A model generated the notes under the pieces. That model had not been told where the DNA came from and did no database searches. It saw only the letters and a list, made by a program, of their open reading frames with translations. Below, piece by piece: positions 12,773 to 38,619 of a DNA stretch of 64,000 nt. The first letter of the stretch is position 1. Each line of letters opens with the position of its first letter. This DNA is from Trueperaceae bacterium (lineage in GTDB: Bacteria; Deinococcota; Deinococci; Deinococcales; Trueperaceae): contig CBDCDZ010000004.1 in NCBI GenBank assembly GCA_965215565.1, forward strand, positions 3,648,001-3,712,000. The letters run 5' to 3'. The translations under genes were made by a program, and so were the position numbers.

Positions 12773-13478
12773 TTAATAATCTTCATGGACAACGTGATTT
12801 TTCTTACTTTGAGTCTCAAGTGCGAGCTTCACCGCGCCCCCAACATGAGTTTGTAAGACGCGAACGCCGTGAGCCTGGAGCCGCTCCAAAACGCCCGTGT
12901 GTGGGTGCCCGTATCCATTTCTGCCGTAAGAAAGAACCGCCTGCTCGGGCTGCGCGGCCCTCAGGAGCGCGTCGGACGTTGAATGTTTCGAGCCGTGATG
13001 CGCCACCATTAAGATATCGACGTCGGGCACGAACAGCTCCCTTTCGACGGGGCTCGAGAGGTCCCCCAAAAAGAGCGCCTTAGTGCCTTTTACGTCCAGC
13101 ACAAAGGCCACCGAGTTGTCGTTGTCGCTCTCGTAAGGGACGGGCGGCGGGTTGAGAATCTCGAGGTCAGCCTCGCCTACGCTCAGCCTTTCGCCGCGCG
13201 TCACCTGCATCACCTTGACGCCCTTGCGCGCCGCAACCTCTAGGAGCGCGTCGAACACGGGTTTACCCGGTGCGGGTGCGCCGATGAGGAGCGTTTGCAC
13301 GGGCATGCCCTCTAATACACTGACGAGCCCTTCGATATGATCGGTGTCAGGGTGCGAGGCGACGACGAGTTCTAGTTCGTCCACCCCTTGCGCTCGCAGC
13401 GCAGGCAGCACCGTGCCCTTCCCCACGTCGAAATCGCTGAAGGGCGTCCCGCCCCCGTCCACTAAAATTTCGATGCGC
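12773..13478 (-). pseudogene. comEC: 3' portion (MBL/beta-lactamase domain) of competence protein ComEC/Rec2, cut by a transposon end
   Basis: R-IEILVDGGG...SHPDTDHIEG...NDNSV...LFLGD...HHGS...SYGRNGYGHP. The frame runs directly into the transposon terminus at 13479, and the DVGQGD motif and membrane domain are absent. Confidence 0.85.
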
Positions 13479-13545
13479 TGTCAGATACAATAATCTATGC
13501 GACTAAACAATAATCCTTGCGACTCTCACAATAATCTCTGCGACT
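13479..13545 (+). repeat. Transposon end: 8-bp terminus TGTCAGAT plus three TnsB-binding-type repeats
   Basis: ACAATAATCTATGCGACT (13487-13504), ACAATAATCCTTGCGACT (13507-13524), ACAATAATCTCTGCGACT (13528-13545). Same geometry as Tn7-family ends. Confidence 0.88.
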
Positions 13546-13562
13546 GACGTATACTCACCTGA

Positions 13563-15345
13563 GTGAGTGTCGTACCGCCTATCGACAAATTTGTTTTGGG
13601 GGACCAATTATACTTCCTCGACTGGATAGGCGGTGTGACGCACAATCCAGGAAAGTCCAGCGAGCCCCTCATGCAGGTATTCACGAGCCCGGTCATAACG
13701 AACAGCGGCGGCATGTCTTACGGAAAGCAGTTCGCTATGAACGTCGGCGTCGGTTTACTCCCTTACATGAAGATCGGCTCCCTCTGGTATGAAGGCAACC
13801 GTATCGGCCTGTTTCCTCTCCGCAAAGTCACCTTTAAGTTAAGAATCGCATCCGACAACCCCATCGTCTCGACGCTTCAGGAAGCTCTGGGAGATGAGCC
13901 CGGTGCGAGTAGGGGCGGGCGTACAGTACTCGGCACCGCTTTGTTCGACACGATAAGTCGAACGAACTGCTTGGTTTACCGTTATGACACGACGCGCAGA
14001 AAGAAGAGCATACTCAGTAGCATCATCTTCCCGGTCATGGAAATTGTCAGGTTCTACTACGCGACCGGGACGAGGCTTAGCAACGCCCTCTTCACGGGCG
14101 AGGTGCAAGGGGAGGACTTGTCGCGACTGTGCAGTGAGGGTTCGGGTCTCTATGACGACGTCGCCATCGTCAAGCTGAAGTCCGAATACGCCGACAGCTC
14201 TGCTTACATCATCGGCAGATGGCTGGGGTCGCCTCACGCCAGGGCGCAAGCGATTAAAATCTACCAGACTGTCCGCAAGGGAACCATCAACCGGCGGGCC
14301 GACCCTTCGAGCGATCTGCACGTGTCGCCGGAAGTCACCTTTCCCTTCCTCGGACCCACCGATCTGAGTGTCCAAGGCACTTACCTTACCCGAGAGAACG
14401 GCGAGCGACATTTCCTGGTCAGTCGTCTCCTACGCTGCACTGCACCTTTTCCCTACGAGGCGGTCACAGTCGAGCGTCCCCTCGGCAAGATCGAAGAGAC
14501 GTTAGAAGGAGAAGAGGGTAATCCCATCTACAGGCGACCCTTTACTCGGAAGCGCAAACCTAAAGGCAGAATCAAACATCACAACGAACCGAACCTCGGA
14601 CTCCGAACCCTGAGCATCGACCTTTACGAAGAGAACTTCCCCGACTTAGAGAACAAACCCCTCCACAAGACCTACGGGGAAGCCTATATCCACCGCACCA
14701 AGAAGCGGAAAGAGGGCGAGGAAGGGGACGATTTCTCGAGCGGCTCCGGCGTCCACGGCGGCTCGGGTCCTAGAGGTATCAGGCTCAACACCGATCCTGC
14801 GGACGAGCCTCCTAAAGCGCAGAAAAAGCGTGCCACGCCGGTGCAGTTGGCGTTCACTAAAGACGCGCTGGACACGCTCAGGGACGCATATAAAGTTCCC
14901 TATACGCTCCTCGATGCCGACGGTCAGGAACTATCAGAGGGGGAAGGATTCGCACTTCTCCCTAGCGAACTTCGGCTGCTGAACGACTGGGCGGAGTACG
15001 AGGTGGGTGAGGAACAACACGCGCCACGTCCTCATCGCCGAACTCGAGCACGAATCTGGGCTTTTCACCATCTTCGAGGTCGAGCGGCGACTGAGCGGCG
15101 AGAGCGGTCGCTACCGGATGCTCATCGCCCATCTGATCACGATGGGAAGTTTGCGGTGGAATGTCAAAGCGATGCTCCAGGTCTTTGCAGAGGAGCAAAG
15201 GGTGTTCCTACCCGAAAAGAAAGCGTTGCAGGCGCTCAAGCCCAAATATTTCAATCATAAGATCGGAGAGACTGCGCCGGAATTTGCCAAGAGAGTATTC
15301 GACTACATGGAGGCACTAGCGAAGCGATCCCGTAAAGAAGGGTGA
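13563..15345 (+). pseudogene. tnsE: TnsE-like target-selection protein, split by a +1 frameshift near 14980-15010
   Basis: IIFPVMEIVRFYY (cf. Tn7 TnsE HIPQLELARSLF), RWLGSP, FPFLGPTDLSVQG, FLVSRL. The second frame (15007-15345) supplies RHVLIAEL...FTIFEVE...NH...FAKRV, resembling the TnsE C-terminal domain. Confidence 0.68.
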
Positions 15346-15403
15346 TTCCCTCATCTTTAGGCGTGTTAAACTCCCCCGAACTAAATCAAGGGGGATAATT
15401 TTC

Positions 15404-15685
15404 ATGGCAAACATCTCGAAAGCCGACCTCGTAGACACGCTCGCCGGGGAAACCGAACTCAACAAGAGCCAGGCGAAAGACGCTTTGGAAGCGGTTCTGA
15501 GCACCATCACATCGCACCTCGAGAAAGAGGACAAGGTCACTTTAACCGGCTTCGGCACCTTTGAGGTGAGAGAGCGCAACGCCAGAGAAGGGGTCAAGCC
15601 GGGTACGAGCGAGAAGATTCAGATACCCGCGACTAAATACCCGGCGTTCAAAGCAGGAAAGAACCTCAAGGATCGCGTGAAGTAG
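15404..15685 (+). CDS. hup: HU family DNA-binding protein
   Basis: SKADLVD...LTGFGTFEVRERNAREG.KPGT.E.IQIPA...PAFKAGK.LK. Confidence 0.95.
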   Translation: MANISKADLVDTLAGETELNKSQAKDALEAVLSTITSHLEKEDKVTLTGFGTFEVRERNAREGVKPGTSEKIQIPATKYPAFKAGKNLKDRVK

Positions 15686-15718
15686 GCATTTATCTCGTTC
15701 AGCGCTTAAACTGTAAAG

Positions 15719-15985
15719 GTGACCAAGCCTTCCCTCTTCGACCCTGCCGTGCTCGATCAGTTGGAAGGCTTGAACGAGCGCTACGCCAAGCTGAGCGCTC
15801 GCATTGAAGAGCTGGAGGCCAGGATCGACGCGGGCGTAGCGTTCGACCTGCCGCCCGACACCGCGCAACTCGGCAGCTTGGTAGACACGCGACGTAGAGT
15901 CGAAGTTACGAAGTTTTCCGAAGGAAAGGAGGCTGTAGCGTTGCTCGAGACGCTCCTCAACGAGTTGAGAGAAGCAGCCCCTTAG
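15719..15985 (+). CDS. Hypothetical coiled-coil protein
   Basis: Compact ORF between HU and the sulfotransferase; TAAACT -10-like box 6 nt before GTG. Confidence 0.6.
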   Translation: MTKPSLFDPAVLDQLEGLNERYAKLSARIEELEARIDAGVAFDLPPDTAQLGSLVDTRRRVEVTKFSEGKEAVALLETLLNELREAAP

Positions 15986-16044
15986 TTCTGCTGCCACCTT
16001 CCCCAATCGCATCCTATCTAATCGTCTAGTTTAGGGAGGTTCTC

Positions 16045-16731
16045 ATGGCACTTCAAGTCATCGGCGCAGGCACAGGACGCACCGGCACTATGTCGCTCAA
16101 GCTCGCCCTAGAACAACTCGGCTACGGCAGGTGCTATCACATGGTCGAGCTGCTCCAACATCCCGAGGACGTGGTCCACTGGGAGCGGGCGAATAGGGGC
16201 GAGCCGGTGGACTGGGACACGCTCTTCGCAGGCTACCGTGCTACCGTGGATTACCCCGGCTACCTCCACTACAAGACGCTCATGCAGCGCTACCCTAATG
16301 CCAAAGTCATCCTTACCGTGCGCGACCCCGACGCCTGGTATGAAAGTGCTCTCGCGACGATCTACCGTGCCGAGCCCGGTTTGGCGCAAAAGCTCAAAAT
16401 GGGCTTAGCCCTCCCTTTCTCCCCGAAGCTCCGCAAGCTCCTGCGCGTGTTCCAGCTCTCGGGCGAGGTTTGGGAGCGGGAGTTCGAGGGCAGGTTCGAG
16501 GACAAGGACTTCGCGGTAGCGAGGTTCGAGCGGCACAACGAAGAGGTCAAGCGCACTGTGCCCGCCGACAAACTTCTCATCTATGAGGTCAAGCAGGGGT
16601 GGGGACCTCTTTGCGAGTTCCTGGAGGTATCCGTAGCCGACACGCCCTTTCCCCGCTCTAACGACCGACAGGCGTTTCAGGCGCAGCAGAGGCGGGGATT
16701 GCGAGCCTTACTCAGGAATGACATCGCTTAG
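16045..16731 (+). CDS. Sulfotransferase family protein (Sulfotransfer_4-like)
   Basis: VIGAG.GRTGT.SLK.ALE.LG, CYHM, AKVILTVRD...WY.S, GW.PLCEFL, FP..N. Confidence 0.88.
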   Translation: MALQVIGAGTGRTGTMSLKLALEQLGYGRCYHMVELLQHPEDVVHWERANRGEPVDWDTLFAGYRATVDYPGYLHYKTLMQRYPNAKVILTVRDPDAWYESALATIYRAEPGLAQKLKMGLALPFSPKLRKLLRVFQLSGEVWEREFEGRFEDKDFAVARFERHNEEVKRTVPADKLLIYEVKQGWGPLCEFLEVSVADTPFPRSNDRQAFQAQQRRGLRALLRNDIA

Positions 16732-16763
16732 CGGAGAGGTTGCTCAAAACCGTTCTTCACATG

Positions 16764-16800
16764 AAAGAACACCCGCTACTCGGTGTAGCGGGTGTTCTTT
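16764..16800. terminator. Intrinsic terminator (bidirectional-looking)
   Basis: AAAGAACACCCGCTAC-loop-GTAGCGGGTGTTCTTT perfect stem just after the sulfotransferase. Confidence 0.8.
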
Positions 16801-16904
16801 CGGTTCGAGTCGACATGTGGTGTCATTGTTGCGAGAAGCAACTGTAGAGCGTTGTTCCAACCTCTCATGCTACGGTCGCTGCTAGTCGATGCCTTCTGGC
16901 ATTT

Positions 16905-16945
16905 ATACCTAGGCGCTCCGCAAGCAAAGCGGAGCGCCTAGGTAT
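16905..16945 (-). terminator. Hairpin immediately after the lipoprotein stop codon
   Basis: ATACCTAGGCGCTCCG...CGGAGCGCCTAGGTAT, 16-bp perfect stem. Confidence 0.7.
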
Positions 16946-16948
16946 TTA

Positions 16949-18007
16949 CTATTGGAAGTTGAAAGAATCAGAGGTATTACAGGTGCCGGTTCTACCTCTA
17001 TCCGACGCCGTGTGAGTCGTCGACTCCGAGCCGGACACTTCGATGTTCAAGCCTGCAACCCAGTAAGGGATTCTAGGCAGCGCCGAACCGTAGCGGCTGC
17101 TGGTGTAAGTGCCTGTCCGACTGCCCACCTCTTTAACAACGGTTCCTGAAACTGTAACGTTTTTCCGAACGCTGAGGCTCAAGTCTCCTTTGTTGGGCGT
17201 GTATATCCGACCCACATTTCCGGTTCCGGCGAATAAGCCGTATACCGAGGGGTTTCCTGGTAACTTGATCCAGGTGAATTTTGCCGCGCCGCTTGCGCCC
17301 ACAACACGTCTGGCCCGGAGCCGTTTTTTGTAGTAGGTATCTACGCAGCTATCGGCGGCTAGCTCAGCTTTGGGGATCAGATATTCTTTGATGAAGGAAA
17401 TCAACCCTTGCGACTCCAAAACCGACGTACTCTCTACTGCGGCTGTAGAGCGCTCGATAGGGCTGTAGGCGACACCTAAATCCCTATTTGCCTGGGTGCT
17501 GAGAGACTCAGGCGTAGCAACAGCGCTCAGGTCGACCTGGGATAGAGAATCGACTGGGATAGCAACAATGTTATCGTCAGTGACAAGGTAAACGATGTCC
17601 GCGATCTGTACTAGACCCTTCTCGTTTAGAATACTTTGAAGGTAAGGGTCGTGAATGATGGTCCGGGGTAAGAGGTCTTGATCAGCGAGAGATTCACGCT
17701 CCTCTGCACTGAGTTGAGCGAAATCCTCCTCCATAGAGAGGTTTTGCTGCTCAATTGTGTGTCTTTCCGAAGTGTAGCCCATGCGTTGCTCGAGACTATT
17801 CAAGAACGCTTCATCCTGATTGATGAGGCTACCCCAATAGGTTGCGAAGGCGTCGAAATCCGGAAATGTAAGGCGACCGTCGACAAGCGACGCTTGAGCG
17901 GCAGAGTCGTATTCCTCTGGGGTTTGTACTGAGTTTTGCGTACCACACGCAGTTAAACCCACTGTTACAGACAGTAGTGCGACTAGTAGTAAGGATGTGC
18001 TTTTCAT
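16949..18007 (-). CDS. Hypothetical lipoprotein
   Basis: CAGGAG RBS, then MKSTSLLLVALLSVTVGLTAC (lipobox LTAC). Confidence 0.78.
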   Translation of the reverse strand: MKSTSLLLVALLSVTVGLTACGTQNSVQTPEEYDSAAQASLVDGRLTFPDFDAFATYWGSLINQDEAFLNSLEQRMGYTSERHTIEQQNLSMEEDFAQLSAEERESLADQDLLPRTIIHDPYLQSILNEKGLVQIADIVYLVTDDNIVAIPVDSLSQVDLSAVATPESLSTQANRDLGVAYSPIERSTAAVESTSVLESQGLISFIKEYLIPKAELAADSCVDTYYKKRLRARRVVGASGAAKFTWIKLPGNPSVYGLFAGTGNVGRIYTPNKGDLSLSVRKNVTVSGTVVKEVGSRTGTYTSSRYGSALPRIPYWVAGLNIEVSGSESTTHTASDRGRTGTCNTSDSFNFQ

Positions 18008-18250
18008 AATTATCTCCTGTTTGAAAGAACTCGGGTCAGTCAAAGCTGAATCCAACAGACGGGACTTTGGAAACTCAGGGGTGTGAGTGCCGAATGTTAG
18101 ATACTCGAACGAATCATGCTTACGGTGCTAAACGTAGCGTTGCTCCAGGCGCTTTGCAGCAAGGTGTCGAAATTTAGGTAGGATGTGCCCGCTCTACCTA
18201 TGCAGCTATGTACCGTGAAGAAAGCTTCCCTGCACCTACCTCCCTTTCTT

Positions 18251-18377
18251 TAGATTTAGGCTGTAAGCGTTACTAGTAACTTCAGCGATCAGTTGATCCA
18301 CTAACAACCTTGACCTAAATCAAAAGCCTTCGAGGGTTCCCGGACGGAGCCACAAATCCTGGAACCTATTTGGAACC
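18251..18377 (-). promoter_or_regulatory. Conserved cis-element copy A (GGTTCCA direct repeats plus structured leader)
   Basis: Colinear homolog of 60207-60328 (see findings). Confidence 0.7.
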
Positions 18378-18437
18378 AAATACAAGTAAGGCTGTAGGCA
18401 ACTTCGTTGAACTTGCGAAGCCGACAAGTAAGAAAGG

Positions 18438-18719
18438 ATGACGACCATGAAATATTTGCGCTTAGTTTGTCTTGGTATCCTCTTATTAGGGTTTGGTGCA
18501 CAGGTCTACGCCGAGCCAGCGCCCCCTTCGCAGGCTCAACACGAGAGCGAAGCGAGCGAGCATACCGACGCCGAAGACGCTTCTGGGCAGCATGAAGGTG
18601 GCTCGGACGAATCTACCGACCCTGAAGACCCAGGTGACTCAGTGGGGATGCCCTGTCCTTCAGGGGTCTGTGACAATAACGGGGGTGGCGCACGTAATCC
18701 GGTCGCTGCCGACCCGTGA
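18438..18719 (+). CDS. Small secreted acidic protein
   Basis: AAAGGA RBS, signal peptide ending VYA, acidic body, CPSGVC near the C-terminus. Confidence 0.6.
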   Translation: MTTMKYLRLVCLGILLLGFGAQVYAEPAPPSQAQHESEASEHTDAEDASGQHEGGSDESTDPEDPGDSVGMPCPSGVCDNNGGGARNPVAADP

Positions 18720-18781
18720 GCCTCAATTCAGTCCGCAGTTGAGGCGAAGCAGGACGAACCGAGCGCCCAGGCTGGCTTCTT

Positions 18782-18970
18782 ATGAACACGGTCGGAAAAG
18801 CGACGCCGGACGAGCAGGTTACCGAGCAGAGCACTGAGGACGAAGGACACGACGATTCCAAACAAATTCTGAAAGACCTCGAGATTGAGAAAGCTAAGGC
18901 GAGGGTGAAGGTTGCAGACGTCACCCTCGCCGCTTTAATCAGGCGACAACGCGAGAAAGATGAACCGTAG
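18782..18970 (+). CDS. Hypothetical small protein
   Basis: 62-aa ORF filling the gap before the convergent regulator. Confidence 0.35.
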   Translation: MNTVGKATPDEQVTEQSTEDEGHDDSKQILKDLEIEKAKARVKVADVTLAALIRRQREKDEP

Positions 18971-18975
18971 GTGCG

Positions 18976-21486
18976 CTAAAGAGCTAACTCGGCTCTCAAC
19001 TGCTGAATGCGGCTCAACACAATAGGGGTGCGCGGGTCGCTGGGCGACAGACGTTCCGGCAGCGTCTCCCACAACGCCAAATCGTCCACCATGACGGTCG
19101 AGAGATAGTATTGCGCCTCGAGGTCTCCTGTAGACATTACGGCCTCTCTCAGGGCGCGTTCGAGGAAACCCTGCTCCTCGATGAGCCGTGGCGACTCCGC
19201 TGCCGCCAACAAAGGACCACGGTAAAGCTCTATCGCCTCGGAAATGTCGCCGCGCTTCAAGTGTGAGAGGAGCGCATTGAAATCGGCCTCGACTTGCCCG
19301 CTCAGGCGGTAGGGACGTGTCGAAATCGGAACGTGTTCGCGGAGCCGCGCAAGCAGGGATTTGATACTCGCCGCCGCTGCGTCCTCGCCGTATAAGTAAG
19401 AGGCCAAGCGCTGTCCGCTCAGACCCTCCGGGTAGAGTGCGAGCAGGGCGAGCACCTCGAGTTGGCGGGTGGACAAGGTGAGTATTTGACCATCGAGCCG
19501 GACTTGCGGCGGTCCGAGGAAGGTCAGCTCGAGGTGCGCCTTACCCTGCTGCGTCCCGGCAACGACCTTCTGAAAGATCGTTGCGGGACCGACGAGGTAA
19601 CGCTCGCCGCTCGTGCCGAGCGCACTGAGGTAAGGCTGCACGTCTTCCATCACACGGTGCGCCGTCACCGTGTCGCCGCGCTCGACGTAGGTGAAGGCCA
19701 AATAGCTACAAGCGCGGGCATAATGTACGGCTTGAATAGGCGACTTGTAATGGTCCACCGTCCGCTGTAGGTAAGGCTCTGCCGCTGCTGCGTCGCTCAG
19801 AGAAAGTGCCATACCGAGGCTGAGGTCGGCTGCCGCGCGGTCTGTGGCAAGGTGCTGTGCGCGTTGCGCCCACTCCAGCGCAGCTTCGTGCTTGCCGAGT
19901 TCGAGCAGTGTACGCACGAGGTTGATGGCGTTCTCGCCGAACTGCGCCCTGTCCAAAGATTGCGCGTTGGCTTCGTAGTAGGGCAAGGCCCGGTCTGCCT
20001 GACCTTGCGACAACCAATAGTCACCCAAGGTCGAGCGGACTAGGGCCGCGAGCCCCGGCACGCTGGAGGCGAGATGGGCCTCTGCCTCTTCGAGCAGTGT
20101 TTCGAGTCCTGCCGTTTTACCCGTTAAAATACGCCCGAACGCCCACTCGTTGGCAGTGACCAACCACCGATAGGTATTTTTCAAATCGTGCTTATCGAAC
20201 AGCTCCAACGCCCACCCCGCCCAGGTCGTCCCCACATCGTAGCGGCCGACTAAAATGTAAGTCGCAGCGAGCGACCAAGCGTTTCTGACCACAGCGTACC
20301 CGTCCTCTTCCGCCTCGGCTTGCTCGACTGCCTCGTGCAAAACCTCGATGGCTCGTTCGGGCGCGTCGTAGTTCAAGGCCAGACCATACTCGTAAAGCGT
20401 AAAGGAGGTCCGTGCGAGCGCGACCGCACGTTCCGCCTGTGTAAGGTGGGTGTCGCCGCCACTCAAGGGTGCGTAGAACGCACGCAAACGAGGGGCATCG
20501 TGGTGCTGGAGAAAAGTCTCGATACGCGCCAGAAGGGGTGCGACTTGACCGACACGTCGCGCCGCGACCAGGAGCCAAAACAGCACGGCTTCGTTCTCTT
20601 GGTGCGTTTCGTCTAGCTGATTCAAGTGGCGCCACAACTGCCGATAGAGCCCCTGCGCTAAAAAGTAATTGCCGGACGCCTCGAGGATGGTGGGCACTTG
20701 CTCCGGTTTGAAGCGCACCGACAATTCCAATGCTTCAGACCATCGTTCCGTGTAGAGAAGGCTGGTGAGCACCTCACCGATGCTCGCTTCCTCCTCGAAG
20801 CCTTGTACGTACCAGTAGCCCTTCGCCGTCGGACGTAACGGAACGGGTCCGCCGTAGTGCTGATGGAGGAGCGCGAGAAAAGGCTCGAGCGCGCTGCGGC
20901 TTTCGGCCAGTAGGTCTGCGAGTACTGCGTCCGGAAGATCGGGGCTCAACTCACGTGCGTCGCCTAGCGACAAGGTGAGGGCGTCGCGGTCGAGGACGAG
21001 GCTGTTCGGGTAGGACAGCGGCAGCGCCTCATCGCTCGTCAAGATTAGGGAAGCCGTGCCGAGCGTGTTGCCTACGTCGGCGACGAATTGGGGGTAGAGG
21101 TCGGCGTAGGAGATCGCGATCTGGAAGGGGTCGAGGGCGTCGCGGCAGCGTTGCAGGACCGATAGCCCGTAGGGGTAGGGCATACCGTGCTGGAGGAGCG
21201 GACGACCGAGTGCACGGGTGAGCGCGTCGGCGAGACGGTTACCCAAGTAGACGGGGTCGCCCTGATCGTCCGGCTCCAAACTGAGCCAGGCGAGAGGTCG
21301 GTCCTCGGTCGGTAGACGATGGATGATCTGATGACTGCCCCAGGCCGGGTCGCCGGTAAATAAAACGGGCCCCTCGTGGTGCCGGATGCGCTCGGTATAG
21401 CGCGTGAGCCATGTGCTGTCGGCAAGGCGACCTAGAGTGACTGGCGCGGCGGATTCCCCTTGTCCGTACGAGTGTCTGCTATCCAT
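18976..21486 (-). CDS. Large MalT/SARP-like transcriptional regulator (degenerate NTPase-like N-terminus, TPRs, C-terminal wHTH/BTAD-like region)
   Basis: AWLSL..DD.GDPV, TPR-like helices, LTFLGPPQV.LDG...EVLALLAL...L.RLR...Y.L...VEADF...AIELYRGPLL. GGGGA RBS before MDSRH at 21486. Confidence 0.72.
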   Translation of the reverse strand: MDSRHSYGQGESAAPVTLGRLADSTWLTRYTERIRHHEGPVLFTGDPAWGSHQIIHRLPTEDRPLAWLSLEPDDQGDPVYLGNRLADALTRALGRPLLQHGMPYPYGLSVLQRCRDALDPFQIAISYADLYPQFVADVGNTLGTASLILTSDEALPLSYPNSLVLDRDALTLSLGDARELSPDLPDAVLADLLAESRSALEPFLALLHQHYGGPVPLRPTAKGYWYVQGFEEEASIGEVLTSLLYTERWSEALELSVRFKPEQVPTILEASGNYFLAQGLYRQLWRHLNQLDETHQENEAVLFWLLVAARRVGQVAPLLARIETFLQHHDAPRLRAFYAPLSGGDTHLTQAERAVALARTSFTLYEYGLALNYDAPERAIEVLHEAVEQAEAEEDGYAVVRNAWSLAATYILVGRYDVGTTWAGWALELFDKHDLKNTYRWLVTANEWAFGRILTGKTAGLETLLEEAEAHLASSVPGLAALVRSTLGDYWLSQGQADRALPYYEANAQSLDRAQFGENAINLVRTLLELGKHEAALEWAQRAQHLATDRAAADLSLGMALSLSDAAAAEPYLQRTVDHYKSPIQAVHYARACSYLAFTYVERGDTVTAHRVMEDVQPYLSALGTSGERYLVGPATIFQKVVAGTQQGKAHLELTFLGPPQVRLDGQILTLSTRQLEVLALLALYPEGLSGQRLASYLYGEDAAAASIKSLLARLREHVPISTRPYRLSGQVEADFNALLSHLKRGDISEAIELYRGPLLAAAESPRLIEEQGFLERALREAVMSTGDLEAQYYLSTVMVDDLALWETLPERLSPSDPRTPIVLSRIQQLRAELAL

Positions 21487-21672
21487 ACATTCCCCCAAAG
21501 ACCGTGCTAGAGCACATGAGTACATGGAAGATACGAGGCTTGCCCTGAATTTCATCTGACTGCAAGCCTGTGGAGGCTGCTTCATACGTCTGAAAAAGTA
21601 TGTTGCGGTTCGCAACAGGTGGACGCAGACACCTGGGCTTGGTCTAAAACCTTGGACACTCAAAGTATACAG

Positions 21673-22645
21673 CTAAGCGGCTAGGCTCACCTCCTGAGTC
21701 TCTTTTCGCTGCTGGGATAGTTCAAAGGTGTCAGGCGTCTCATAGCCGAGCGAGCTGTGCAGCCGCTCGCGGTTGTAGTAGACCTCGATATATTCGAACA
21801 CCGCGACGCGGGCGTCATCGCGTGTGGCAAAGCGCTCAATGGGATAAACGAGTTCGCGTTTTAGTGTCGCCCAAAAGCTTTCAATGATGGCATTGTCGAA
21901 GCAGGCTCCTTTGCCTGTAAAGCTCGGCAGCATCTTGTGCGCTTCGAGTTCGCGCTGATAAGCGTAGGAGGTGTATTGAGAACCCCTGTCGCCTAGGTGA
22001 AGGCTAAGAGCCTTTGAGCTTCGCTCTAACCTTGTGATGAATCAAACCGGGCTGGGGCTTGCGCCGCGTCGTGGCTGAGCATAGGGCTTGCAGCACGAGG
22101 TCAGTCTTCATATTGTCACTCATGGCGTAGCCCACAACGCGCTTAGAGAAGCCGTCAATGACGCCCGCTAGATAAAGCCAGCCCTCGGCGGTCGGCAGAT
22201 AGGTAATGTCAACATGCCATACCTGATTGATCGCTGTTGGGCGTGGTTGTTCCAGCAACAGGTTCTGGGTCTCGAGATCACAGCGCTCATACTTAGTGCG
22301 GTGTTTCTTGTGACTCACAGCGTAGAGCCCTTCACGACGCATAAGACGTTTGACTCTGCCTAGCGAACACGAAACCTGCTGCTTCTTGAGTTCGGCGTGG
22401 ACACGGGGGCTGCCATATCTGCCCTTATTCTTCTCGAATACCGCTTTGATCTTCTCCAACAGCTCGGCGTTGCGCTTTTCGCATTTGCTCGGCTCCCGCT
22501 GCTGACGAGCCCGCCAGTGATAGTAGCTGCTCCTAGCCACGCCCAAGACCTTGCACAGCGCCGAGACGGAGAACTCGCTCTGGTGCGCCTCGATGAACGC
22601 GCACTTTAGGTTGTCTGTTTCGCAAAGTAAATGGCGGCCTTTTTT
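21673..22645 (-). pseudogene. IS3 transposase OrfB (DDE), interrupted by a 40-bp insertion at 21993-22032
   Basis: YGSPR, WHVDITY, LIHH|SDRGSQY (restored when the 40 bp are removed), DNAIIESF, YYNRERLHSSLGY.TP. Confidence 0.88.
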
Positions 22646-22911
22646 ACGATCGCCAACTCTGTTTCAAGTCGCTTCACCTCCGCCTGGAGCCGTTTCAGTT
22701 CGGCTTCGTCAGCGGTCGGTTGTGCTCTTTTATGACCCATCACGAGTCGTCCCTCGCGGTATTGTCTACGCCACTTATGGATGTTCGACTCAGCAATACC
22801 CAAGCTCCGTGCCGCCTCGGTGATGCCGTAGCCCTTTTTCTCTACCAGTTCCACCGCATCGATCTTAAACTCCATTGGATACTGCCGAACCACCCTCTTG
22901 CCTTCTGCCAT
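22606..22911 (-). CDS. IS3 transposase OrfA (HTH)
   Basis: QYPMEFKIDAVELV...AARSLGI...W...ELKRLQAEVKRL..E..IVKKAAIYFAK. Confidence 0.9.
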   Translation of the reverse strand: MAEGKRVVRQYPMEFKIDAVELVEKKGYGITEAARSLGIAESNIHKWRRQYREGRLVMGHKRAQPTADEAELKRLQAEVKRLETELAIVKKAAIYFAKQTT

Positions 22912-23580
22912 CGTCTTCCTCCTTAGCAAAGTCTATTCCTACTAACTTTGTCCAAGGTAGTGGGCCAATGCCAACCTTAGCAAGCGAAGGTGCTCGAGGA
23001 ATAGTACGTAAAATCACAAAGAGATGTACTTTAACGTTTGATGAACGCTCAACGGGAGTTGACGAGGAGAGGCTGCGAAAGCGAACACTCGCCCGTTCGT
23101 TGTCTGGATTGAAGGGGGTCGAGGCTCTCCTCGACGACGCTTTCAAAGCGCTCTATCCGGACACACTTTTCCTTCGTAAAGACGAATTTTGCGGAGGTTG
23201 CCCGGAGACGAAATCGCTCAACGCCAACCCTTTAGCGACCACTGAGAAAGCCGCCAGGTCTTGAACCGATCCGACGGCTTTCTCTCGTTGTAGTTCCCCC
23301 GGCGGAGCACTCTTATTTTAACGCCGTCGTCATATCGAGAACAGGTGTGTACGGACTAGCTAATTCGGGGTTGGAGAACCTACAAAGAAAAAGCTCGAGG
23401 GGACCTCCAACCGGGGGGCGGGATGTAGAAGGTACGGTCCTCGAGACTTTCCTCAGCCTAGCCGCTCTCGGTCCCTCCGAATGAGCCATTGCGTTACCGA
23501 ACGTCACTGTGAAAAGGTTCACTCTTTCCGCCGAGGTGTAACAAATAATCGGAGTAGAGCACAGATTTACTTGCTTTCAC

Positions 23581-23874
23581 ATGTCTATAATTGTAAACAA
23601 AAGTATGATGCTAAAGGTGAAAAAGTCGAGTAAGCGCACCTCTTACGAACGGGCATTCTTTCGAGCAGTAGGTGCACGCATAGAGCTGTTCAGGTTGCGG
23701 CGCGGGCTGAGCTTGGAGGAAGTTGCTGCCCATACAGTGCATCCGCCCGAGTGGCTGAAGGGGCTCGAGGCGGGAGTGGAGGAACCGAGGCTCGACGACC
23801 TATTCGGCATCGCCAAGGCGTTAGGCACCGACCCCAGCGAACTCGTGAGGGTGGAGCCGAAGGTGTTTTCTTGA
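23581..23874 (+). CDS. XRE-family HTH regulator
   Basis: VGARIELFRLRRGLSLEEVA...LEAG...PRLDDLFGIAKALG. Start codon uncertain. Confidence 0.8.
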   Translation: MSIIVNKSMMLKVKKSSKRTSYERAFFRAVGARIELFRLRRGLSLEEVAAHTVHPPEWLKGLEAGVEEPRLDDLFGIAKALGTDPSELVRVEPKVFS

Positions 23875-23924
23875 TACGGTCAGCTCTCACGGCAGCATAG
23901 GGGAACGTGTGACACGATGAGGGC

Positions 23925-24164
23925 ATGTCAGGACGCCGCAAGGACCCGGAATACCAGGCTTACAACCGCAAGGTCGGGGAGAGGATCAAGGAGCTGAGGC
24001 GGGATAAGAACCTCTCTCAGGAGGAGTTTGCTGCCGAGGTCGGACTCAGCCGCTCGTACCTGAGTTTGCTGGAGACGGCTAAGCAGGACCCGTCGCTCTC
24101 GACGCTCTTTAGGGTGGCGAAGGTTTTGGGGTTGAGTGTGAGTGAGTTGCTCGAGGTGGAGTAG
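23925..24164 (+). CDS. XRE-family HTH regulator
   Basis: VGERIKELR..KNLSQEEFA..VGLSRSYLS.LE....PSL.TL..VAKVLG. Confidence 0.9.
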   Translation: MSGRRKDPEYQAYNRKVGERIKELRRDKNLSQEEFAAEVGLSRSYLSLLETAKQDPSLSTLFRVAKVLGLSVSELLEVE

Positions 24165-24180
24165 CGTCACCAGAAACTCT

Positions 24181-25848
24181 TCAGTAATCTATATTCATAG
24201 CTGCACTATCGGCGATTTCGTCTGCTGCTAAAGATAGAGCGTGCCTAAGTGCTTCCTGATTTTCATTCTTGAGCAAGCTGAATCGCGATTGACTCTGTTC
24301 GGGCAAGAGGGTTACGCCCGCCTTTTGAAGAAGTCCTCTATACGCAGGATTAGCCACGAATCCTATCATGTTGGAATAATCGTGCTTATACTTTTCTATG
24401 AAATACATAAGCCTTTCGTAAACCCGCGCTTGAGCTGTTTTATCGCGTTTAGATAAGAGGAAGTCGTAATTCAAAACAGCGGGCTCTTTCACGTAACGCA
24501 GAGGAACAGGTCCGTAAAGCCCGGATAAGAAAACAATGTCGATATCGTTCTCTAGTCCCTGTAAACTTTTCACGACTCGCTTATATGACGATGAGTCGGT
24601 GTACGGTTTAGCCTGAGAACAGGTGAGAATTAGACAGATAGGTTTCTTGGCCTTAAAACGCCTTTTACGTATATCGAAGGCAGTAGGGTCATTTCTGACT
24701 GGCTTCACCTCCACTGCTTCCGGTAGAGGCTCGCCCTCAAGCAAGGCGCGGAGCTGGGCTCTTGGACGAGCTAGTTCAACGAGATAGTCTTCCAGTACGC
24801 CTTTCTCCCGAGCAGCAATTGCCTTATCAAGGATTTGCATATCCATTTCAAGATTGTGAAGTGCAGTCGCAGCATAAACGACACTCTTACGTCCCCGCTT
24901 AACCTCACCTTTTTTGGCTCGCATTACGAAAACATCTTCATGCACATCGCGCGAGTAGCAGACTTGACATGTACATGGATAGGACAAAAGTTCCCAAAGA
25001 CGTCGTTCTTTGTAATTGGGGGTGATGTATTTAAGTGAGCGAGCTTTCTGAATATAACCACTAGTGTCGAAAGTAGTCGCCCCTGCATGTAAGAGGAAAG
25101 GGACGAGAAGTCCGGTGACACCAAAAACATGCATCGGTAACTCTCCTGCAGCGCCACGTACAGCGCGGACATAACGGACGATCTCCTGCTGTCTCCCCGC
25201 CTTTCTTAACGGAACTATGGAACCTAGCCCTACCCCGTGAACGATCTGCATGAGATTTTCCTTGTCGAGACGTTCAAGCACCTCCTGCGTGAAGATGGCA
25301 GCTTGCTCGGGTGTATTCCCGTGAACAGGAACTACAAGATTTATATCTTTATCCGGTCTCTCAGAAAGAATTCTTGCGCAGTAAAGTGCATTTTGAAGTG
25401 TCTTGTTCAGTCGGTTACGCGACTCTTCTTCAGTTAATCCAGGCGGTATCGGGTAATCTAAAGACACAATCCTCGAAGCGCCTAAAGCTAGCTGGAGTTC
25501 GAGAATCTTTTCCTGCATGTTATGTTCAAAGAAGCCGTAGCGATCCAATCCAGCGGGTGGACCCTGCATGAACACGTAACCACCTGAGTCAGCTAAAATG
25601 TGTGCATGATAATCTAAGTCGAAATTGCCATTGTAGTGTTTACGCAGAGGTTTAGACAGCCACATCTCGAGTTGTTTTGGTAGTATGGCACCGTAGTTCA
25701 AAAAGTGTAGTGCTTGAACCATCACGGGTATATTACGCCTCAATAAACCTTGTTCCATGCCATGCAAGAGTTGCTTATACATGCCGCCGCCGTTTGGCGT
25801 TGTACCTGTCATCATAGCCGTAACTGGGTATAGGATAGAATTGTGCAC
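24181..25848 (-). CDS. tRNA-guanine transglycosylase (TGT/DpdA-like) fused to a C-terminal DUF5591-like domain
   Basis: DSGGY, LDYP, PVHG, MHVFG, FDTS, Zn site CTCQVC...HNL; C-terminus LTCSQAKPY...SGLYGPVP...YDF. Confidence 0.82.
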   Translation of the reverse strand: MHNSILYPVTAMMTGTTPNGGGMYKQLLHGMEQGLLRRNIPVMVQALHFLNYGAILPKQLEMWLSKPLRKHYNGNFDLDYHAHILADSGGYVFMQGPPAGLDRYGFFEHNMQEKILELQLALGASRIVSLDYPIPPGLTEEESRNRLNKTLQNALYCARILSERPDKDINLVVPVHGNTPEQAAIFTQEVLERLDKENLMQIVHGVGLGSIVPLRKAGRQQEIVRYVRAVRGAAGELPMHVFGVTGLLVPFLLHAGATTFDTSGYIQKARSLKYITPNYKERRLWELLSYPCTCQVCYSRDVHEDVFVMRAKKGEVKRGRKSVVYAATALHNLEMDMQILDKAIAAREKGVLEDYLVELARPRAQLRALLEGEPLPEAVEVKPVRNDPTAFDIRKRRFKAKKPICLILTCSQAKPYTDSSSYKRVVKSLQGLENDIDIVFLSGLYGPVPLRYVKEPAVLNYDFLLSKRDKTAQARVYERLMYFIEKYKHDYSNMIGFVANPAYRGLLQKAGVTLLPEQSQSRFSLLKNENQEALRHALSLAADEIADSAAMNIDY

Positions 25849-25888
25849 AGGAAGACCTTACCGTACGAAGAGCGATAAAGCAAGACCT

Positions 25889-26335
25889 TCAAGTAGGAAG
25901 CAGGAATTCGTACCGCAACATTTTGCTTATATTCCTATGCGGGTTATCTACGATAAGAACGGTTTCAGCGTTGCGGTAAAAGCTGCCCCAGAGGAAGTTT
26001 GCTGACCCCACTAGAGCGATTTCATCAGTGATCAAACCCTTGCTGTGCAAGTGAGGAACAATGTGGTGTTTATCAGGCGTAAAGCGCGATAAAAGTGCAT
26101 TGAGCCTCCGGTCCGGTTCTCTCGTATAGATTGAGGTTCGATGCCCCTGTCCTTGTAGATAAAGTAGCAAGGTGCTCAGTCGTTGCGGTCCCGATTTATT
26201 GACAGGATAAGGTAGCTGTAGGGGTAGATCGTCCATCCAAGGGCTGACAATTGCGATGTCACCCTCGCTACTCAACATAATCTGAGGAACCAACCACGGC
26301 AGCTTCTTAGAGGCTAAGAACACGGTTAGGTGCAC
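25889..26335 (-). CDS. Phospholipase D-like nuclease (DpdK/DrmC-like)
   Basis: IVSPWMDD; single HKD motif LHSKGLITD...GSANF...N.E. Confidence 0.82.
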   Translation of the reverse strand: MHLTVFLASKKLPWLVPQIMLSSEGDIAIVSPWMDDLPLQLPYPVNKSGPQRLSTLLLYLQGQGHRTSIYTREPDRRLNALLSRFTPDKHHIVPHLHSKGLITDEIALVGSANFLWGSFYRNAETVLIVDNPHRNISKMLRYEFLLPT

Positions 26336-29300
26336 CGCTCTCGAGAACCATCGGTAAGTTTTTCCCCTCTCTAGCCCTTTCGGAAAGTTCTTTGTTGCTC
26401 ATCTCTATTATCAGCCTCGATAGTATTGACTCAGCGAGTAACCTTGAAGGCTCCTCGTCACCGATCTGCTGAGTACCGACACAAACGGGGCAGCCATCAG
26501 TTTCTAAACAGGTGTATTGGAATGGCTCCCCACTCGCTCGTTGGTTGATCAACCGGGTAAGTTCGTTTGAAACTTCGACGAAAATATCCTCTGGTAGCGT
26601 ACTCTGGGGATCGGGTAGGTTGAGGCGTGCCACCGTACGCGTACGTAATAGTTGGGCGTCTATACCATCGCGCAATGCCTCTTCAGCTAAACCGACAGGG
26701 CATAGCACAACACGTAGCAGTTCTTGGTAAACCTGAAGTGCATCAGCCTCAAGTGCTTTCTGGAAAACTTCGATAAGACCCGCGCCCCCCTCAAAAACTT
26801 CCCACACCGAAACGTTATTGTCGCCGATCGCAGACTCTAAATCTTCACGGTGCACGCCGACGACACTTGCTACTGCCCGATGAAGCAGCTCTCGAGCGGT
26901 GGCAAGTGCCACTCCTCGGAGTTGCTGCGGCTGCGCTCGTCCCTCACTAAGCTCGTTGAGCAAGTCATCGAGCTGCCATCCAAGTGCTTGCGTGTCTATC
27001 GTATACACCATTGGCTCAAGGTAACGGACTTCAAAGCGGTCTGGATCGCCGCTAGCCCTGAAATACTCTGCGTCCGCGTCTCTATCGTTTGAGTTACTCT
27101 TCAGATAACGATGTGACTCAACGTCAGAACCTAAAACTCTGGTCCTCCCTTGTCCCTCAAATACACGCAGTCGCTCGCTAATACACGTTCCCGTATGATT
27201 TTCGAAACGCCTCTCTAAGTAGGGCTGGGCGTAGAGCTTTCGAAATTCAAGTTGCCCGCCACATTCACAAACCCGCTTACTAAGACTGTGAACCTTGTAG
27301 CATTGCTTACAAAATTTAACGACTTGGCGTCCTTGACGGTCCGTACGGACGCCGCGTAAAGGTACAATCTGAGGACGTACACCCCCTTCTACACTTAAAC
27401 CCTCAATGGGTAAACGCACCCTGACCCTGCTTCCGTCAACCCAATCAGGGTGGTGTTCCGTATCGAGGGTTGCCAAAGTCGTGTCTCCATAATGACGATA
27501 AGTCAGTCTATACGGTAAATAAAGACTCGCTAAGTTGGAAACTTGCTCCTCTATGTAGTCAGAGCTGCCGCTAGAGTAACGCTTTTCGAAACGCAAAGGC
27601 TTTACGGTTTGAAAGTAAGATGAGGGTAGGAGAGAGCTGATGGAGACCGGACAGTTGTTCTCTACGCAGGTGTGGCTAGGTTCGCTTACTGCGTCGACGC
27701 CAGCGTGTAAATAGTAAAGCGAACCTAGCGTTACTTTTATGTCTTGTGGAGACGATTGGAAGGACCACCCTTTATTCCAGTGCTCCTTTAACGTGAAAAA
27801 GAAGTTGTGGAGCCGCTCGTAGTCAGAGATGCTTCCTTCGCCTGTTCGTCTTAGGTTATAGAGGTGAGCCCTAAGGTTAGTAAGCAAGGTCACTACTTCT
27901 GCGAGATGCTCGGCACGTTCAGGTTCATCAACGAGAATCTGGCTTACTTGGCTGATAAGACTATTGGTAGTAAGACGCTGTGTCGGCTGTGCTCCTCCAG
28001 CGAGGTAGTTGTCGATCTGCTCTCGGAATGCATCTAAGTCATTCATCAACTCGGTGGGAAAAGCGCTTCGAAGTTGAGTCAAATGGCGTCTCAAATCGAG
28101 GATAGGTCCGGTTCTCTCTAATTCTCTATCAGCCCAGCCAATCAAAGCATCTTTGAATCCAGAAAGATCGAAGTAGCCTGCAAATCTGTCTCTAAAATTG
28201 TCAAAGTCTTCCTGATACTTAGCACTCAATGTTGGGCAGGCTTCGAGCTGGTCGAGGATGTAACGTGCTATGGCCTTAGGTGGAAAACTTTCGTTTTGTT
28301 GGTAGTACTTGGCATATTGACTACGGTCCCGCTCCAGTCTCTCGTGTAATTGTTGAATAACCGCATTGTCCGTATTGAGGGGGATGTCGAAAACGCCATT
28401 TAGTAACCGTTGACGTCTAAAAAGTGCGAAGTTATCCGGAGCGTCGTTACCCAATATAAGGATGCTATGACTTAGATCGCCTTGCTTTCGTCCAGCGCGT
28501 CCGCGCCTCTGAGTAAAACCTGCTAGAGAACGCGGTGGTCTGTATTGGACAACAGCTTTGATCTGTTCATTGTCCACGCCTACCTCCAGTGTAGGCGAAG
28601 CGACAAGAAGATTGGGACTAAGATTTTTACCCGTCTTCGATGTGACTTGAGCTACTGAGAGAGGCTCTTCACTAACTACTTCTGCTGGTTCATAGCAATC
28701 TTTGCCACCATGTATTCCTCTCCAGCACTCGCCCGCACTATAGATATCGCAGCGCATAGGTTCCTTGCGAGGGCAGGGTTCATTATTCCCATTTAACGGG
28801 TAAGAAATATCTTCGACTACCGTGCGGAATGCCCAAAGCCCTTGATTGTGTTCAGCGTCTCGAAGCTGATTAAAAAAGCGCCCCGTCTGATCGAGAGAAT
28901 CCGCAAAAATGATAACCTTCTCTTGAGGGGTCAAAAAAGCGTGCCCGAGTGCCATAGCGCACTGGATGAGTAAGGAAGACGGAGCAGGGCTTGACTCATC
29001 AGTTGGCGTCTGAAGCGTGACAAACCCTTCTATTCCTCCCAACTCTTGCTCTGCTTCGTAGGCACTTGAAAGAGCCTCGTGTGCTCGGACTCCCTGGTCA
29101 CTCCCGTAAAATAATCGGCTCGCGAAACGTATAGGGTCCGAAATGGTTGCGCTGGCAGCAATGAGCGTGAGTTCTTTGCCAACAAGTTTCTTCAGCCGAT
29201 TGATGAGCTGATGAACGTGGACGCCGTAAAGCGAATCGTACAGATGCGCCTCGTCGATAACAATTCCGCTGAGTCCTGTAAGGAACGGTTCAAACTCCGG

Positions 29301-30194
29301 CCGAAGGTAGAAGGAATCGAGCGACTCGGCTGTCGTTACCATTATCGGTGGGTTTGCCTTGATATGCCCTTCACGCGATATTGACACCGCAAAAGTTTTT
29401 TTGCAATCTGGGCACTCAAGTTCTCGGTAGGGTTGCTCTCCTTTTGGAAGGAGTCGCAATTTGACCTTCGCACCACAGACGGGACATTCTTCTAGCGATT
29501 GAAATTCTCCTGATTCGAAGAGGGGAGAGCCATCATCGTCATATTGATTATCGACCGTTAATTGGTCAGAACGCTTGACGGAGCCGAACTGAATTCCTAC
29601 CGGAATGACATGACCTTGCTGTCGCGCGAAATAGGCTGCGCTCAACACCCGCGCAAGTTGATCCTCAAGCAGGGCGATGCGAGGATAGACTAAAATGAAA
29701 CGCTGGGTGGGGTTCTTCAAAAGACTGTAGATAAGAGGAAGTACGAAAACTTCCGTTTTTCCGGCTCCCGTAGGTGCCGTGATGACGAGTCCAGAGCGAT
29801 TCTCCACTGATCTCAAAACTTCAGCCCAACCGTCGACCTGAAATCTACTAAATTCTGGGTACGGGCTCAGTTTGGCGACAGCTTCCTGTTCGGTCGTAGG
29901 AAAAGTGCTTACGCTGCGAATAGGTCTTGTGCGAGGTATGGCGTCAAAACGGAGGCGTCCAACAAGAACATTGCCGCTTTCGCTCGCTCCAAAGCGCTGT
30001 TTTACCGTCTCCAAAATCCGCAGTAGCTCAAGCGTTCGTGGCACCTTGACACTAGGGGAAAGGGCGACCATATGTGCATCTGTACTGATAGCATTAGAAC
30101 GCCGCGCCACAACCGCCGCATCTGGCGTTGTGTTGTTGCGATTTACTTCTGTGCTAATTCGCTCCAATTCTGCGAGTAGTTCAGGCAGCATCAA
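26307..30194 (-). CDS. DEAD/DEAH SF2 helicase with Zn fingers and C-terminal DUF1998-like domain (DpdJ-like)
   Basis: FQ Q-motif, APTGAGKT, DEAH, SAT, LEVGVD, QRRGRAGR; several CxxC pairs; C-terminal LLH...WEVFEGGAG...C..DGCPVC. Confidence 0.85.
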   Translation of the reverse strand: MMLPELLAELERISTEVNRNNTTPDAAVVARRSNAISTDAHMVALSPSVKVPRTLELLRILETVKQRFGASESGNVLVGRLRFDAIPRTRPIRSVSTFPTTEQEAVAKLSPYPEFSRFQVDGWAEVLRSVENRSGLVITAPTGAGKTEVFVLPLIYSLLKNPTQRFILVYPRIALLEDQLARVLSAAYFARQQGHVIPVGIQFGSVKRSDQLTVDNQYDDDGSPLFESGEFQSLEECPVCGAKVKLRLLPKGEQPYRELECPDCKKTFAVSISREGHIKANPPIMVTTAESLDSFYLRPEFEPFLTGLSGIVIDEAHLYDSLYGVHVHQLINRLKKLVGKELTLIAASATISDPIRFASRLFYGSDQGVRAHEALSSAYEAEQELGGIEGFVTLQTPTDESSPAPSSLLIQCAMALGHAFLTPQEKVIIFADSLDQTGRFFNQLRDAEHNQGLWAFRTVVEDISYPLNGNNEPCPRKEPMRCDIYSAGECWRGIHGGKDCYEPAEVVSEEPLSVAQVTSKTGKNLSPNLLVASPTLEVGVDNEQIKAVVQYRPPRSLAGFTQRRGRAGRKQGDLSHSILILGNDAPDNFALFRRQRLLNGVFDIPLNTDNAVIQQLHERLERDRSQYAKYYQQNESFPPKAIARYILDQLEACPTLSAKYQEDFDNFRDRFAGYFDLSGFKDALIGWADRELERTGPILDLRRHLTQLRSAFPTELMNDLDAFREQIDNYLAGGAQPTQRLTTNSLISQVSQILVDEPERAEHLAEVVTLLTNLRAHLYNLRRTGEGSISDYERLHNFFFTLKEHWNKGWSFQSSPQDIKVTLGSLYYLHAGVDAVSEPSHTCVENNCPVSISSLLPSSYFQTVKPLRFEKRYSSGSSDYIEEQVSNLASLYLPYRLTYRHYGDTTLATLDTEHHPDWVDGSRVRVRLPIEGLSVEGGVRPQIVPLRGVRTDRQGRQVVKFCKQCYKVHSLSKRVCECGGQLEFRKLYAQPYLERRFENHTGTCISERLRVFEGQGRTRVLGSDVESHRYLKSNSNDRDADAEYFRASGDPDRFEVRYLEPMVYTIDTQALGWQLDDLLNELSEGRAQPQQLRGVALATARELLHRAVASVVGVHREDLESAIGDNNVSVWEVFEGGAGLIEVFQKALEADALQVYQELLRVVLCPVGLAEEALRDGIDAQLLRTRTVARLNLPDPQSTLPEDIFVEVSNELTRLINQRASGEPFQYTCLETDGCPVCVGTQQIGDEEPSRLLAESILSRLIIEMSNKELSERAREGKNLPMVLESGAPNRVLSL

Positions 30195-32641: not shown

Positions 32642-32730
32642 TCTAAACGTGAGAACTTAGAGTACAATATCTACAATTACAACATTTTCGCATGGTCCAA
32701 TTGTTTAGGATTTCGAGAAAAGTAATACAA

Positions 32731-33147: not shown

Positions 33148-33157
33148 GGAGCTAGAC

Positions 33158-38565: not shown

Positions 38566-38619
38566 CTCGTTAGGCTAGCATTTGTAAGCGGACGGTTCGA
38601 GGGTCCGAGCAATTTCGAC

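Follow-up and report, generated by a model that had tools for sequence, protein, structure and literature searches.

Why does a tnsE-like gene stand at the far end of a Tn7-like transposon, about 45 kb from the transposition genes, and is it still a target selector? We considered this question for a window of 64,000 nucleotides from the genome of a Trueperaceae bacterium (contig CBDCDZ010000004.1, positions 3,648,001 to 3,712,000); positions below are those of the window, and those past its edge are given on the contig as G000:C4, G000 being this genome. We are confident that this gene, likely intact, encodes a target selector of the TnsE family and stands at the distal end of a Tn7-like element of 52 kb, which interrupts comEC and has the layout of Tn6022. 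Its predicted role is to steer transposition into replicating DNA (incoming plasmids, for example), the long TniQ of the element being the likely agent of insertion into a chromosomal competence gene.

The element is 52,120 bp long, running from its left end at 13479 to its right end at 65598 in window numbering extended along the genome (G000:C4:3713598). Its hallmarks are those of a Tn7-like transposon, namely tnsA, tnsB, tnsC and tniQ, together with TG-T/A-CA ends bearing repeated TnsB sites, three on the left and four on the right. The left (distal) end (13479..13545, plus strand) consists of a terminal TG-T at 13479 and three predicted TnsB sites, which are 18-bp repeats at 13487-13504, 13507-13524 and 13528-13545; the right end, with four predicted TnsB sites, lies past the window edge (C4:3713449-3713598). 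The two ends are identical at 26 of 28 positions, and seven of the only nine sites in the genome that match the TnsB-repeat consensus with at most three mismatches belong to them. All directed inward from the right end are tnsA (past the window edge, C4:3712797-3713448), tnsB (3′ part 62917..64000, minus strand; 623 aa in full, starting past the window at G000:C4:3712788), tnsC, which encodes a TniB-type AAA+ ATPase (61996..62916, minus strand; PF05621, E 6e-63), and tniQ (60395..61993, minus strand; PF06527), which encodes about 532 aa with a C-terminal extension. An Atlas assignment of the TniQ C-terminal piece to DUF5697/Replic_Relax (0.90-0.91) was flagged by the tool itself as probably wrong and was discarded. 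At the opposite end, the Tn6022-type tnsE gene (13563..15345, plus strand; about 593 aa in the reading of the short-read contigs, with one extra base in the assembly) has its GTG start codon at 13563, which is 84 bp in from the left end, and is oriented inward toward tnsABC-tniQ; 45,050 bp separate its stop from the end of tniQ. The original prediction, which had placed a TnsE-like reading frame 84 bp inside the opposite end, reading inward at about 45 kb from tniQ, was thus accurate on both points.

The insertion has cut comEC, of which the genome holds a sole copy, in two. The 3′ part, which encodes the metallo-beta-lactamase domain (12773..13478, minus strand; TIGR00361 positions 468-663), adjoins the left end, and the 5′ part (G000:C4:3713599-3715173; TIGR00361 positions 68-462) lies past the window edge. 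The gene is intact and in frame in three other genomes (G001, G002 and G005), and removing four bases here restores that frame. The target duplication, GCGC, occupies 13475..13478 on the left and G000:C4:3713599-3713602 on the right. It is only 4 bp long, in the assembly and in the short-read contigs alike, against the 5 bp that is the norm for Tn7-like elements. Because neither junction has an indel in the short-read contigs, the 4-bp duplication stands; it could reflect a 4-bp stagger, or a 5-bp duplication that has lost one base. Among the 14 surveyed elements with both ends found, the duplication is 5 bp in 12 and 4 bp here, and one (G100) has none that matches. At 13377-13478, a contig of low depth from one short-read run (X2) follows comEC up to the insertion point and then diverges, and is possibly the empty allele from a relative.

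Between tnsE and tniQ lie about 45 kb of cargo (15346..60394), comprising an IS3 element, a TGT/helicase/PLD/QueC island, a lanthipeptide synthetase with an ABC transporter, and metabolic genes. Immediately 3′ of tnsE is an HU gene (15404..15685, plus strand; Pfam PF00216), of which there are three more copies elsewhere in the genome. The island of TGT-like, helicase, PLD, Vut_1 and QueC genes (24181-31941) lies within the transposon and is therefore mobile cargo. The lanthipeptide synthetase (RamC_N, kinase and LanC-like) and the ABC transporter (55529-60200) adjoin tniQ and occupy the slot that tnsF has in Tn6022. A cargo gene with a ComEC-like metallo-beta-lactamase domain is present both here (43163-44194) and in a sister element described below (G000:C4:2983594-2984196); this domain is 33% identical to the host comEC domain severed by the insertion. 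No cas gene was found in the element by Pfam (59 of 93 window ORFs of at least 100 aa, plus their short neighbours), no CRISPR-like array by a repeat scan, and no target-matching word of at least 13 bases inside it. By these scans, the element does not belong to the CRISPR-associated transposons (CASTs), which are defined by cas effectors and an array or att-spacer within the element. Elsewhere in the genome, weak tnsA, tnsC and tniQ matches at G000:C4:1549159-1557922 suggest a third, distant Tn7-like element.

How unusual is this layout? The original prediction had treated it as an unusual split and had likened the position of the gene to that of cas12k in type V-K CASTs. Neither suggestion held: the right comparison is Tn6022, known from Acinetobacter resistance islands. 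As our comparison sequence for Orf4 of Tn6022 we used what we take to be AbaR4 on plasmid NZ_CP021787, on which Orf4 and TnsF were assigned by position; there Orf4 begins about 100 bp inside its own distal end. Like the window element, Tn6022/AbaR4 carries tnsA, tnsB, a TniB-type tnsC and tniQ at one end and, on the opposite strand, tnsE about 85-100 bp inside the other. The core proteins are 25-38% identical (TnsC 38%, TnsB 35%), the TnsE proteins are homologous over their whole length by profile, and both elements sit in a competence gene, comM there and comEC here. They differ in that TniQ has about 532 aa here and about 370 in Tn6022; in that Tn6022 has TnsF behind its short tniQ, where none was found here; in the duplication (5 bp in Tn6022, 4 bp here); and in the host and promoter, the window element having a likely Deinococcota host and a leaderless-type promoter and Tn6022 residing in Acinetobacter. 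Of the strict Tn6022 traits, the window element thus has the distal, opposite-strand, Orf4-homologous tnsE and has neither tnsF nor a comM insertion; lacking these two, it is Tn6022-like in layout and not a strict member. This distal layout of Tn6022 is described in the available portions of Faure 2023 (PMC10293859) and Correa 2024 (PMC11014353), the latter also naming Orf4 as TnsE and showing transposition by TnsABC+TnsE into F. The distal position of tnsE is therefore not new.

Other relatives share fewer of these features. Tn7 has in common with the window element the TnsE C-terminal fold (seen in the paralog), TG-T ends with TnsB repeats, two target selectors, and a TnsE of two domains joined by a flexible linker; in contrast, its tnsE is the last gene of one operon, and it has a Tn7-type TnsC and a TnsD that binds glmS. 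Type V-K CASTs share the TniB-type TnsC clade and a targeting gene near the far end, but differ in that tnsA and TnsE are present in the window element, in which neither Cas12k nor an array was detected. Excerpts of Benler 2021 place Tn6022, Tn5053, V-K and Deinococcus-Thermus elements in one clade. Guide-RNA targeting of comEC is described for a type I-B1 CAST in the consulted part of Hsieh and Peters 2023 (PMC9881144), so that both elements break comEC, that one by a CRISPR guide, whereas no cas gene, array or target word was found in this one.

The layout proved to be usual for homologs in the phylum. Among 364 genomes, 16 carry a homolog of this tnsE, giving 17 loci, two of them in the present genome; a second, broken tnsE-like remnant just 3′ of the intact tnsE of one genome (G167:C1:2288500-2289700) is excluded from these counts. 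In 15 of the 17 loci, tnsE is separated from tnsAB and points inward from a position at or close to a left end; these are not 15 independent cases, as several are close kin (G109 and G114 are near-copies). In 12 loci, one contig carries both tnsE and, convergent with it, a TniB-type tnsC, at a distance of 10-49 kb in eleven and adjacent in one (G044). Three loci are split over contigs, with tnsE at a left end, and a matching 5-bp duplication joins the halves in two of them (G078 and G187). Thirteen of the 15 distal-type loci have a usable start for the gene at 40-100 bp inward of the transposon end. In the remaining two of the 17 (G077 and G282), tnsE follows a long tnsD in the Tn7 operon order. 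A named relative, outside these counts, lies on the mobilizable plasmid NC_017771.1 within a methyltransferase gene, an insertion such as the TnsE pathway would give. The G044 element (G044:C82:40300-71753, joined to G044:C101:1-6889 by a matching 5-bp duplication) has tnsA-tnsB at one end and tnsC-tniQ with convergent tnsE at the other, with tniQ and tnsE tail to tail and the cargo between the two ends. Among this cargo are a CRISPR array, a cas6-like gene and what by eye look like the genes of a type III-B system, and an isolated repeat-spacer-degenerate repeat stands behind the array; as for a guide-RNA reading, no spacer of the C101 part matches the tested flank (17 kb of one contig).

The second homolog in the present genome belongs to a sister element of about 46 kb (G000:C4:2978268-3024605), apparently intact, which interrupts comM, is flanked by a 5-bp duplication and has a right end of the TG-A type. 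It has the same layout, and its TnsA, TnsB, TnsC and TniQ are 45-63% identical to those of the window element, its TniQ being a single ORF of 539 aa that is 58-63% identical. Both comM and comEC are therefore broken in one genome.

By what means do such elements find competence genes? Of the 15 distal-type elements, seven lie in comM, two in comEC and one in comF, so that ten are in competence genes; of the remaining five, one interrupts an ABC ATPase gene, two lie in methyltransferase-like genes and two are intergenic. No TnsF was detected by tblastn with the A. baumannii TnsF in this genome or at any of the loci (E 0.01; a single query of limited reach), and the place behind tniQ where a TnsF-type gene would be expected is taken here by the lanthipeptide synthetase. 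We advance, as a tentative possibility, that these elements form a TnsF-free Deinococcota branch of Tn6022-like transposons, whose one long TniQ, relying solely on protein recognition, has repeatedly been retargeted among competence genes (two comM sites, two comEC sites and one comF site). Quite possible as well, if short of probable, is that the targeting step into comEC used TnsE or some other relaxed pathway instead of a sequence-specific TniQ, and that the insertion was kept because transformation cannot cure it. Several observations agree with this relaxed pathway. First, the window element is sister to the comM element in the TnsC and TniQ trees, so that its closest relative, with a TniQ 58-63% identical, lies in comM and not in comEC. 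Second, the other comEC element (G078) branches apart and is inserted about 45 codons downstream in the opposite orientation; given that these two comEC insertions are not those of sister elements and share neither position nor orientation, comEC was struck twice independently, and not in the way that one fixed attachment site gives. Third, the comEC and comM target regions share no motif (the best match, 15 of 20, is out of register), a third of the elements lie outside competence genes, and the duplication here is 4 bp. Against a relaxed pathway stands the confinement of the seven comM elements to two positions, TIGR00368 282-283 and 405, from which it follows that these TniQs can be site-specific without a detectable TnsF; moreover, with genes of 1-2 kb, chance would seldom place two of 15 elements in comEC and one in comF. 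On the TnsC and TniQ trees, the target labels were no more clustered than shuffled ones (34 and 49 of 200 shuffles, respectively, the TniQ tree being a quick one), and orientation relative to replication was uninformative for the two elements of this genome, which lie on the same strand on opposite sides of the skew minimum. Close relatives with which to judge comEC as a fixed site amounted to two loci at 43% in metagenomes and one other genome among 127 in the family; one locus from genome contigs that had appeared to be a close relative was spurious. We retain TniQ as the likely selector for insertion into a competence gene.

Is the transposition machinery intact? In the assembly, tnsE is split by one extra base, which we mapped to 15011-15012, just past the range of about 14980-15010 in which the original prediction had put a single +1 frameshift; that the C-terminal part lies in the +1 frame was correct. 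Decay, a sequencing error and programmed frameshifting had all been envisaged as its cause. Every short-read contig that covers the break lacks the extra base, and the frameshift is most likely an error of the assembly. These contigs come from two runs (X1 and X2) of one sample that holds at least two variants; runs X3 and X4, from another study, do not reach the break, and X5 is almost empty. In X1 the base is absent at 15011 or 15015 (depths 8.7 and 9.8 of 18.5), and in X2 at 15011 (depth 3.65 of 3.65). The one-base-shorter reading gives a protein of 593 aa, in which the spacing between two conserved residues becomes 11, the modal value among homologs having both (68 of 113). Two other transposition genes are damaged in the assembly. 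In tnsA, five bases are missing that are present in all contigs (depths 18.3 of 18.3 and 8 of 8). In tniQ, an in-frame TAG (60887-60889) sits between two compensating assembly indels, at which the X1 contigs give an open reading (depths 9.82 of 9.82 and 16.2 of 16.2), and the corrected frame fits the paralog.

Real decay, in which an element settled in comEC has lost the function of tnsE, tnsA and tniQ, might be suspected from three lesions that all fall in transposition genes and from the imperfect 4-bp duplication; in addition, the contigs spanning the tnsE break are not identical to the assembly but differ from it by 2-9% (42 letters in 2,430 and 20 in 235, for the contigs other than that of depth 8.7). 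We nevertheless regard decay as unlikely. The reading is open in every contig over each lesion, and both halves of comEC and both transposon ends are undecayed. The lesions in tnsE, tnsA and tniQ each coincide with positions where the two variants of the sample differ, as is typical of consensus errors, and long neighbouring contigs match the assembly with 0-3 differences; from these last two observations, consensus error fits best, and tnsE is probably intact. The two variants diverge most in the middle of tniQ (60617-61162; 44 letters in 307), which could reflect allele exchange in the target selector; tnsC and tnsB, by comparison, are represented over 3.4 kb by one long contig only.

Does the gene truly belong to the TnsE family? 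The intact paralog in the sister element, of 632 aa, is 26-28% identical to the window TnsE, and the N-terminal piece of the latter is homologous to it (E 1e-28). Relatives of the window protein number 562 cluster representatives at E ≤0.001. The family profile, although built without the C-terminal piece of the window protein, matches 14971-15333 at model positions 467-583 (E 2e-13), in the +1 frame; from this sequence match we take the ORF at 15007-15345 to be the true TnsE C-terminal domain. The same profile spans Orf4/TnsE of Tn6022 end to end (77.5 bits) and also matches the gene in the tnsE slot behind tnsD. The structural evidence is that of a model of the paralog, folded from an alignment of 141 rows (pLDDT 89), and not of the window protein itself; an earlier alignment of eight sequences gave a pLDDT of 45, unusable as a search model. 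With this model, the top seven Foldseek matches were all TnsE C-terminal domains, at a probability of 1.00 but an E-value of only 4e-3 to 1.6e-2. In a VIA-align search of 48,161 chains, 5D16 was matched at Z 14.1 (rmsd 2.8, 138 of 161 residues) and the next at Z 6.2, identity to the Tn7 C-terminal domain structures (PDB 5D16, 5D17 and 9D5L) being only 11-14% in structural alignments. The N-terminal part of the paralog (residues 50-302 of the whole-protein model) gave only weak SSB matches (Z 4.1-4.7). The assignment to the TnsE family made by the original prediction is thus borne out, by the fold of the paralog and by the profile match to Orf4.

That the gene is unrelated cargo merely resembling TnsE is highly unlikely. 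In its favour, neither the window protein nor its profile has a match in Pfam, NCBIfam or the PDB by sequence (two profiles were used for the last), and none was found for the protein in the ESM Atlas; pairwise BLAST found no match of the window TnsE to Orf4 of Tn6022, or of the C-terminal piece to a Ralstonia homolog. Yet these library nulls are limits of sensitivity and not evidence of novelty. The Pfam family TnsE_C (PF18623) is absent for the window pieces and for the paralog, and remained below its cut-off throughout a set of 80 homologs plus the paralog, drawn from the 141 alignment rows, with weak hits in four of the 81 proteins and none above 26.7 bits. A PF18623 match above the cut-off is a marker of the library, not a defining trait of the distal TnsE branch; Tn6022-type TnsE was detected weakly in the available part of Faure 2023 (PMC10293859) too. 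Unrelated cargo is refuted by the fold match of the paralog and by the profile matches to Orf4 and to the tnsE-slot gene behind tnsD; TniQ, moreover, is present in every one of the 15 other genomes that carry a homolog. It is extremely unlikely that a short and a full-length TnsE arise by programmed +1 frameshifting of ribosome or polymerase. The break does lie inside the C-terminal domain, and no stop interrupts the first frame for another 80 codons, but no slippery heptamer, long homopolymer or tested +1 motif lies near the break; the paralog and the majority of homologs consist of one ORF of about 540-660 aa; and the absence of the extra base from the contigs largely refutes such a frameshift.

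How might tnsE be expressed from such a position? A TATACT −10 box, part of a predicted leaderless promoter, is present at 13550..13555 (plus strand), 7 nt before the GTG, as had been proposed, and 4 nt from the third TnsB site. The accompanying suggestion of a −35 region within the TnsB repeats was sustained in part: the region overlaps repeat 3 by position, but −35/−10 pair calling found no −35 box upstream of tnsE. In this genome, TANNNT motifs before long ORFs peak at gaps of 5-7 (at gap 6 they precede 122 of the 1548 ORFs, whereas other gaps have about 20), and the tnsE box at gap 7 conforms to the Deinococcota leaderless pattern, TANNNT 6-7 bp before the start codon. Most genes with this pattern in the phylum have no −35 box, according to the accessible text of PMC12340547. 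The paralog has the same box 6 nt before its start, and, these two included, such a motif lies 5-8 nt before a candidate start in only four of the 13 elements with a usable start. With 4 nt between the third TnsB site and the box, TnsB and polymerase would be in competition there. Repression of the tnsE promoter by TnsB is plausible, being allowed by this geometry; in Tn7, the tnsA promoter is repressed by TnsB through the innermost site of the right end, as stated in the part of PMC9308760 available to us.

We return to TniQ and TnsE as two target selectors, and the two-pathway design put forward by the original prediction remains the best reading of a distal TnsE-family gene whose homologs are placed alike. 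By analogy with Tn7 and Tn6022, TnsA and TnsB would cut and paste the element, and TnsC would bridge them to a selector. TniQ would home the element to a competence gene. TnsE's C-terminal domain would bind duplex DNA at 3′-recessed ends and its SSB-like N-terminal part single strands; recognising 3′-recessed replication structures, TnsE would recruit TnsC and TnsAB to plasmids. Tn7 TnsE binds 3′-recessed DNA and the beta clamp and directs insertion into replicating DNA, according to the consulted portion of PMC12153342. The tnsE transcript would be leaderless, and, with its promoter abutting the innermost TnsB site, would be dampened by TnsB, as is the tnsA promoter of Tn7. The tail-to-tail tniQ and tnsE of G044 suggest that the usual point of entry for cargo is between the 3′ ends of these two convergent genes, where its accumulation would push tnsE to the far end. 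Finally, breaking comEC, or comM in the sister, would block loss of the element by natural transformation.

Our literature search, which covered few subscription papers, found no report of protein-guided comEC or comF targeting in Deinococcota or of duplications of 4 bp within the family; Faure 2023 and Benler 2021 have supplements that may list these elements. The distal tnsE is itself ordinary, and extends the known Tn6022 layout to another phylum in a form that escapes Pfam and NCBIfam; the value of the locus lies in its surroundings, with TnsF-free targeting of several competence genes as the lead. In this one genome, two distinct genes for DNA uptake are interrupted by an element that appears complete and by its sister, and neither TnsF nor a CRISPR guide was found. 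If retargeting of TniQ is the true account, the sister pair, with TniQs 58-63% identical in comM and comEC, would be a natural experiment on TniQ target change, and the duplication of 4 bp could be the trace of a changed cutting geometry. If TniQ alone picks the sites, the pair would give a direct test of target switching in protein-guided transposons, and would also test the idea that mobile elements disable natural transformation to escape curing.
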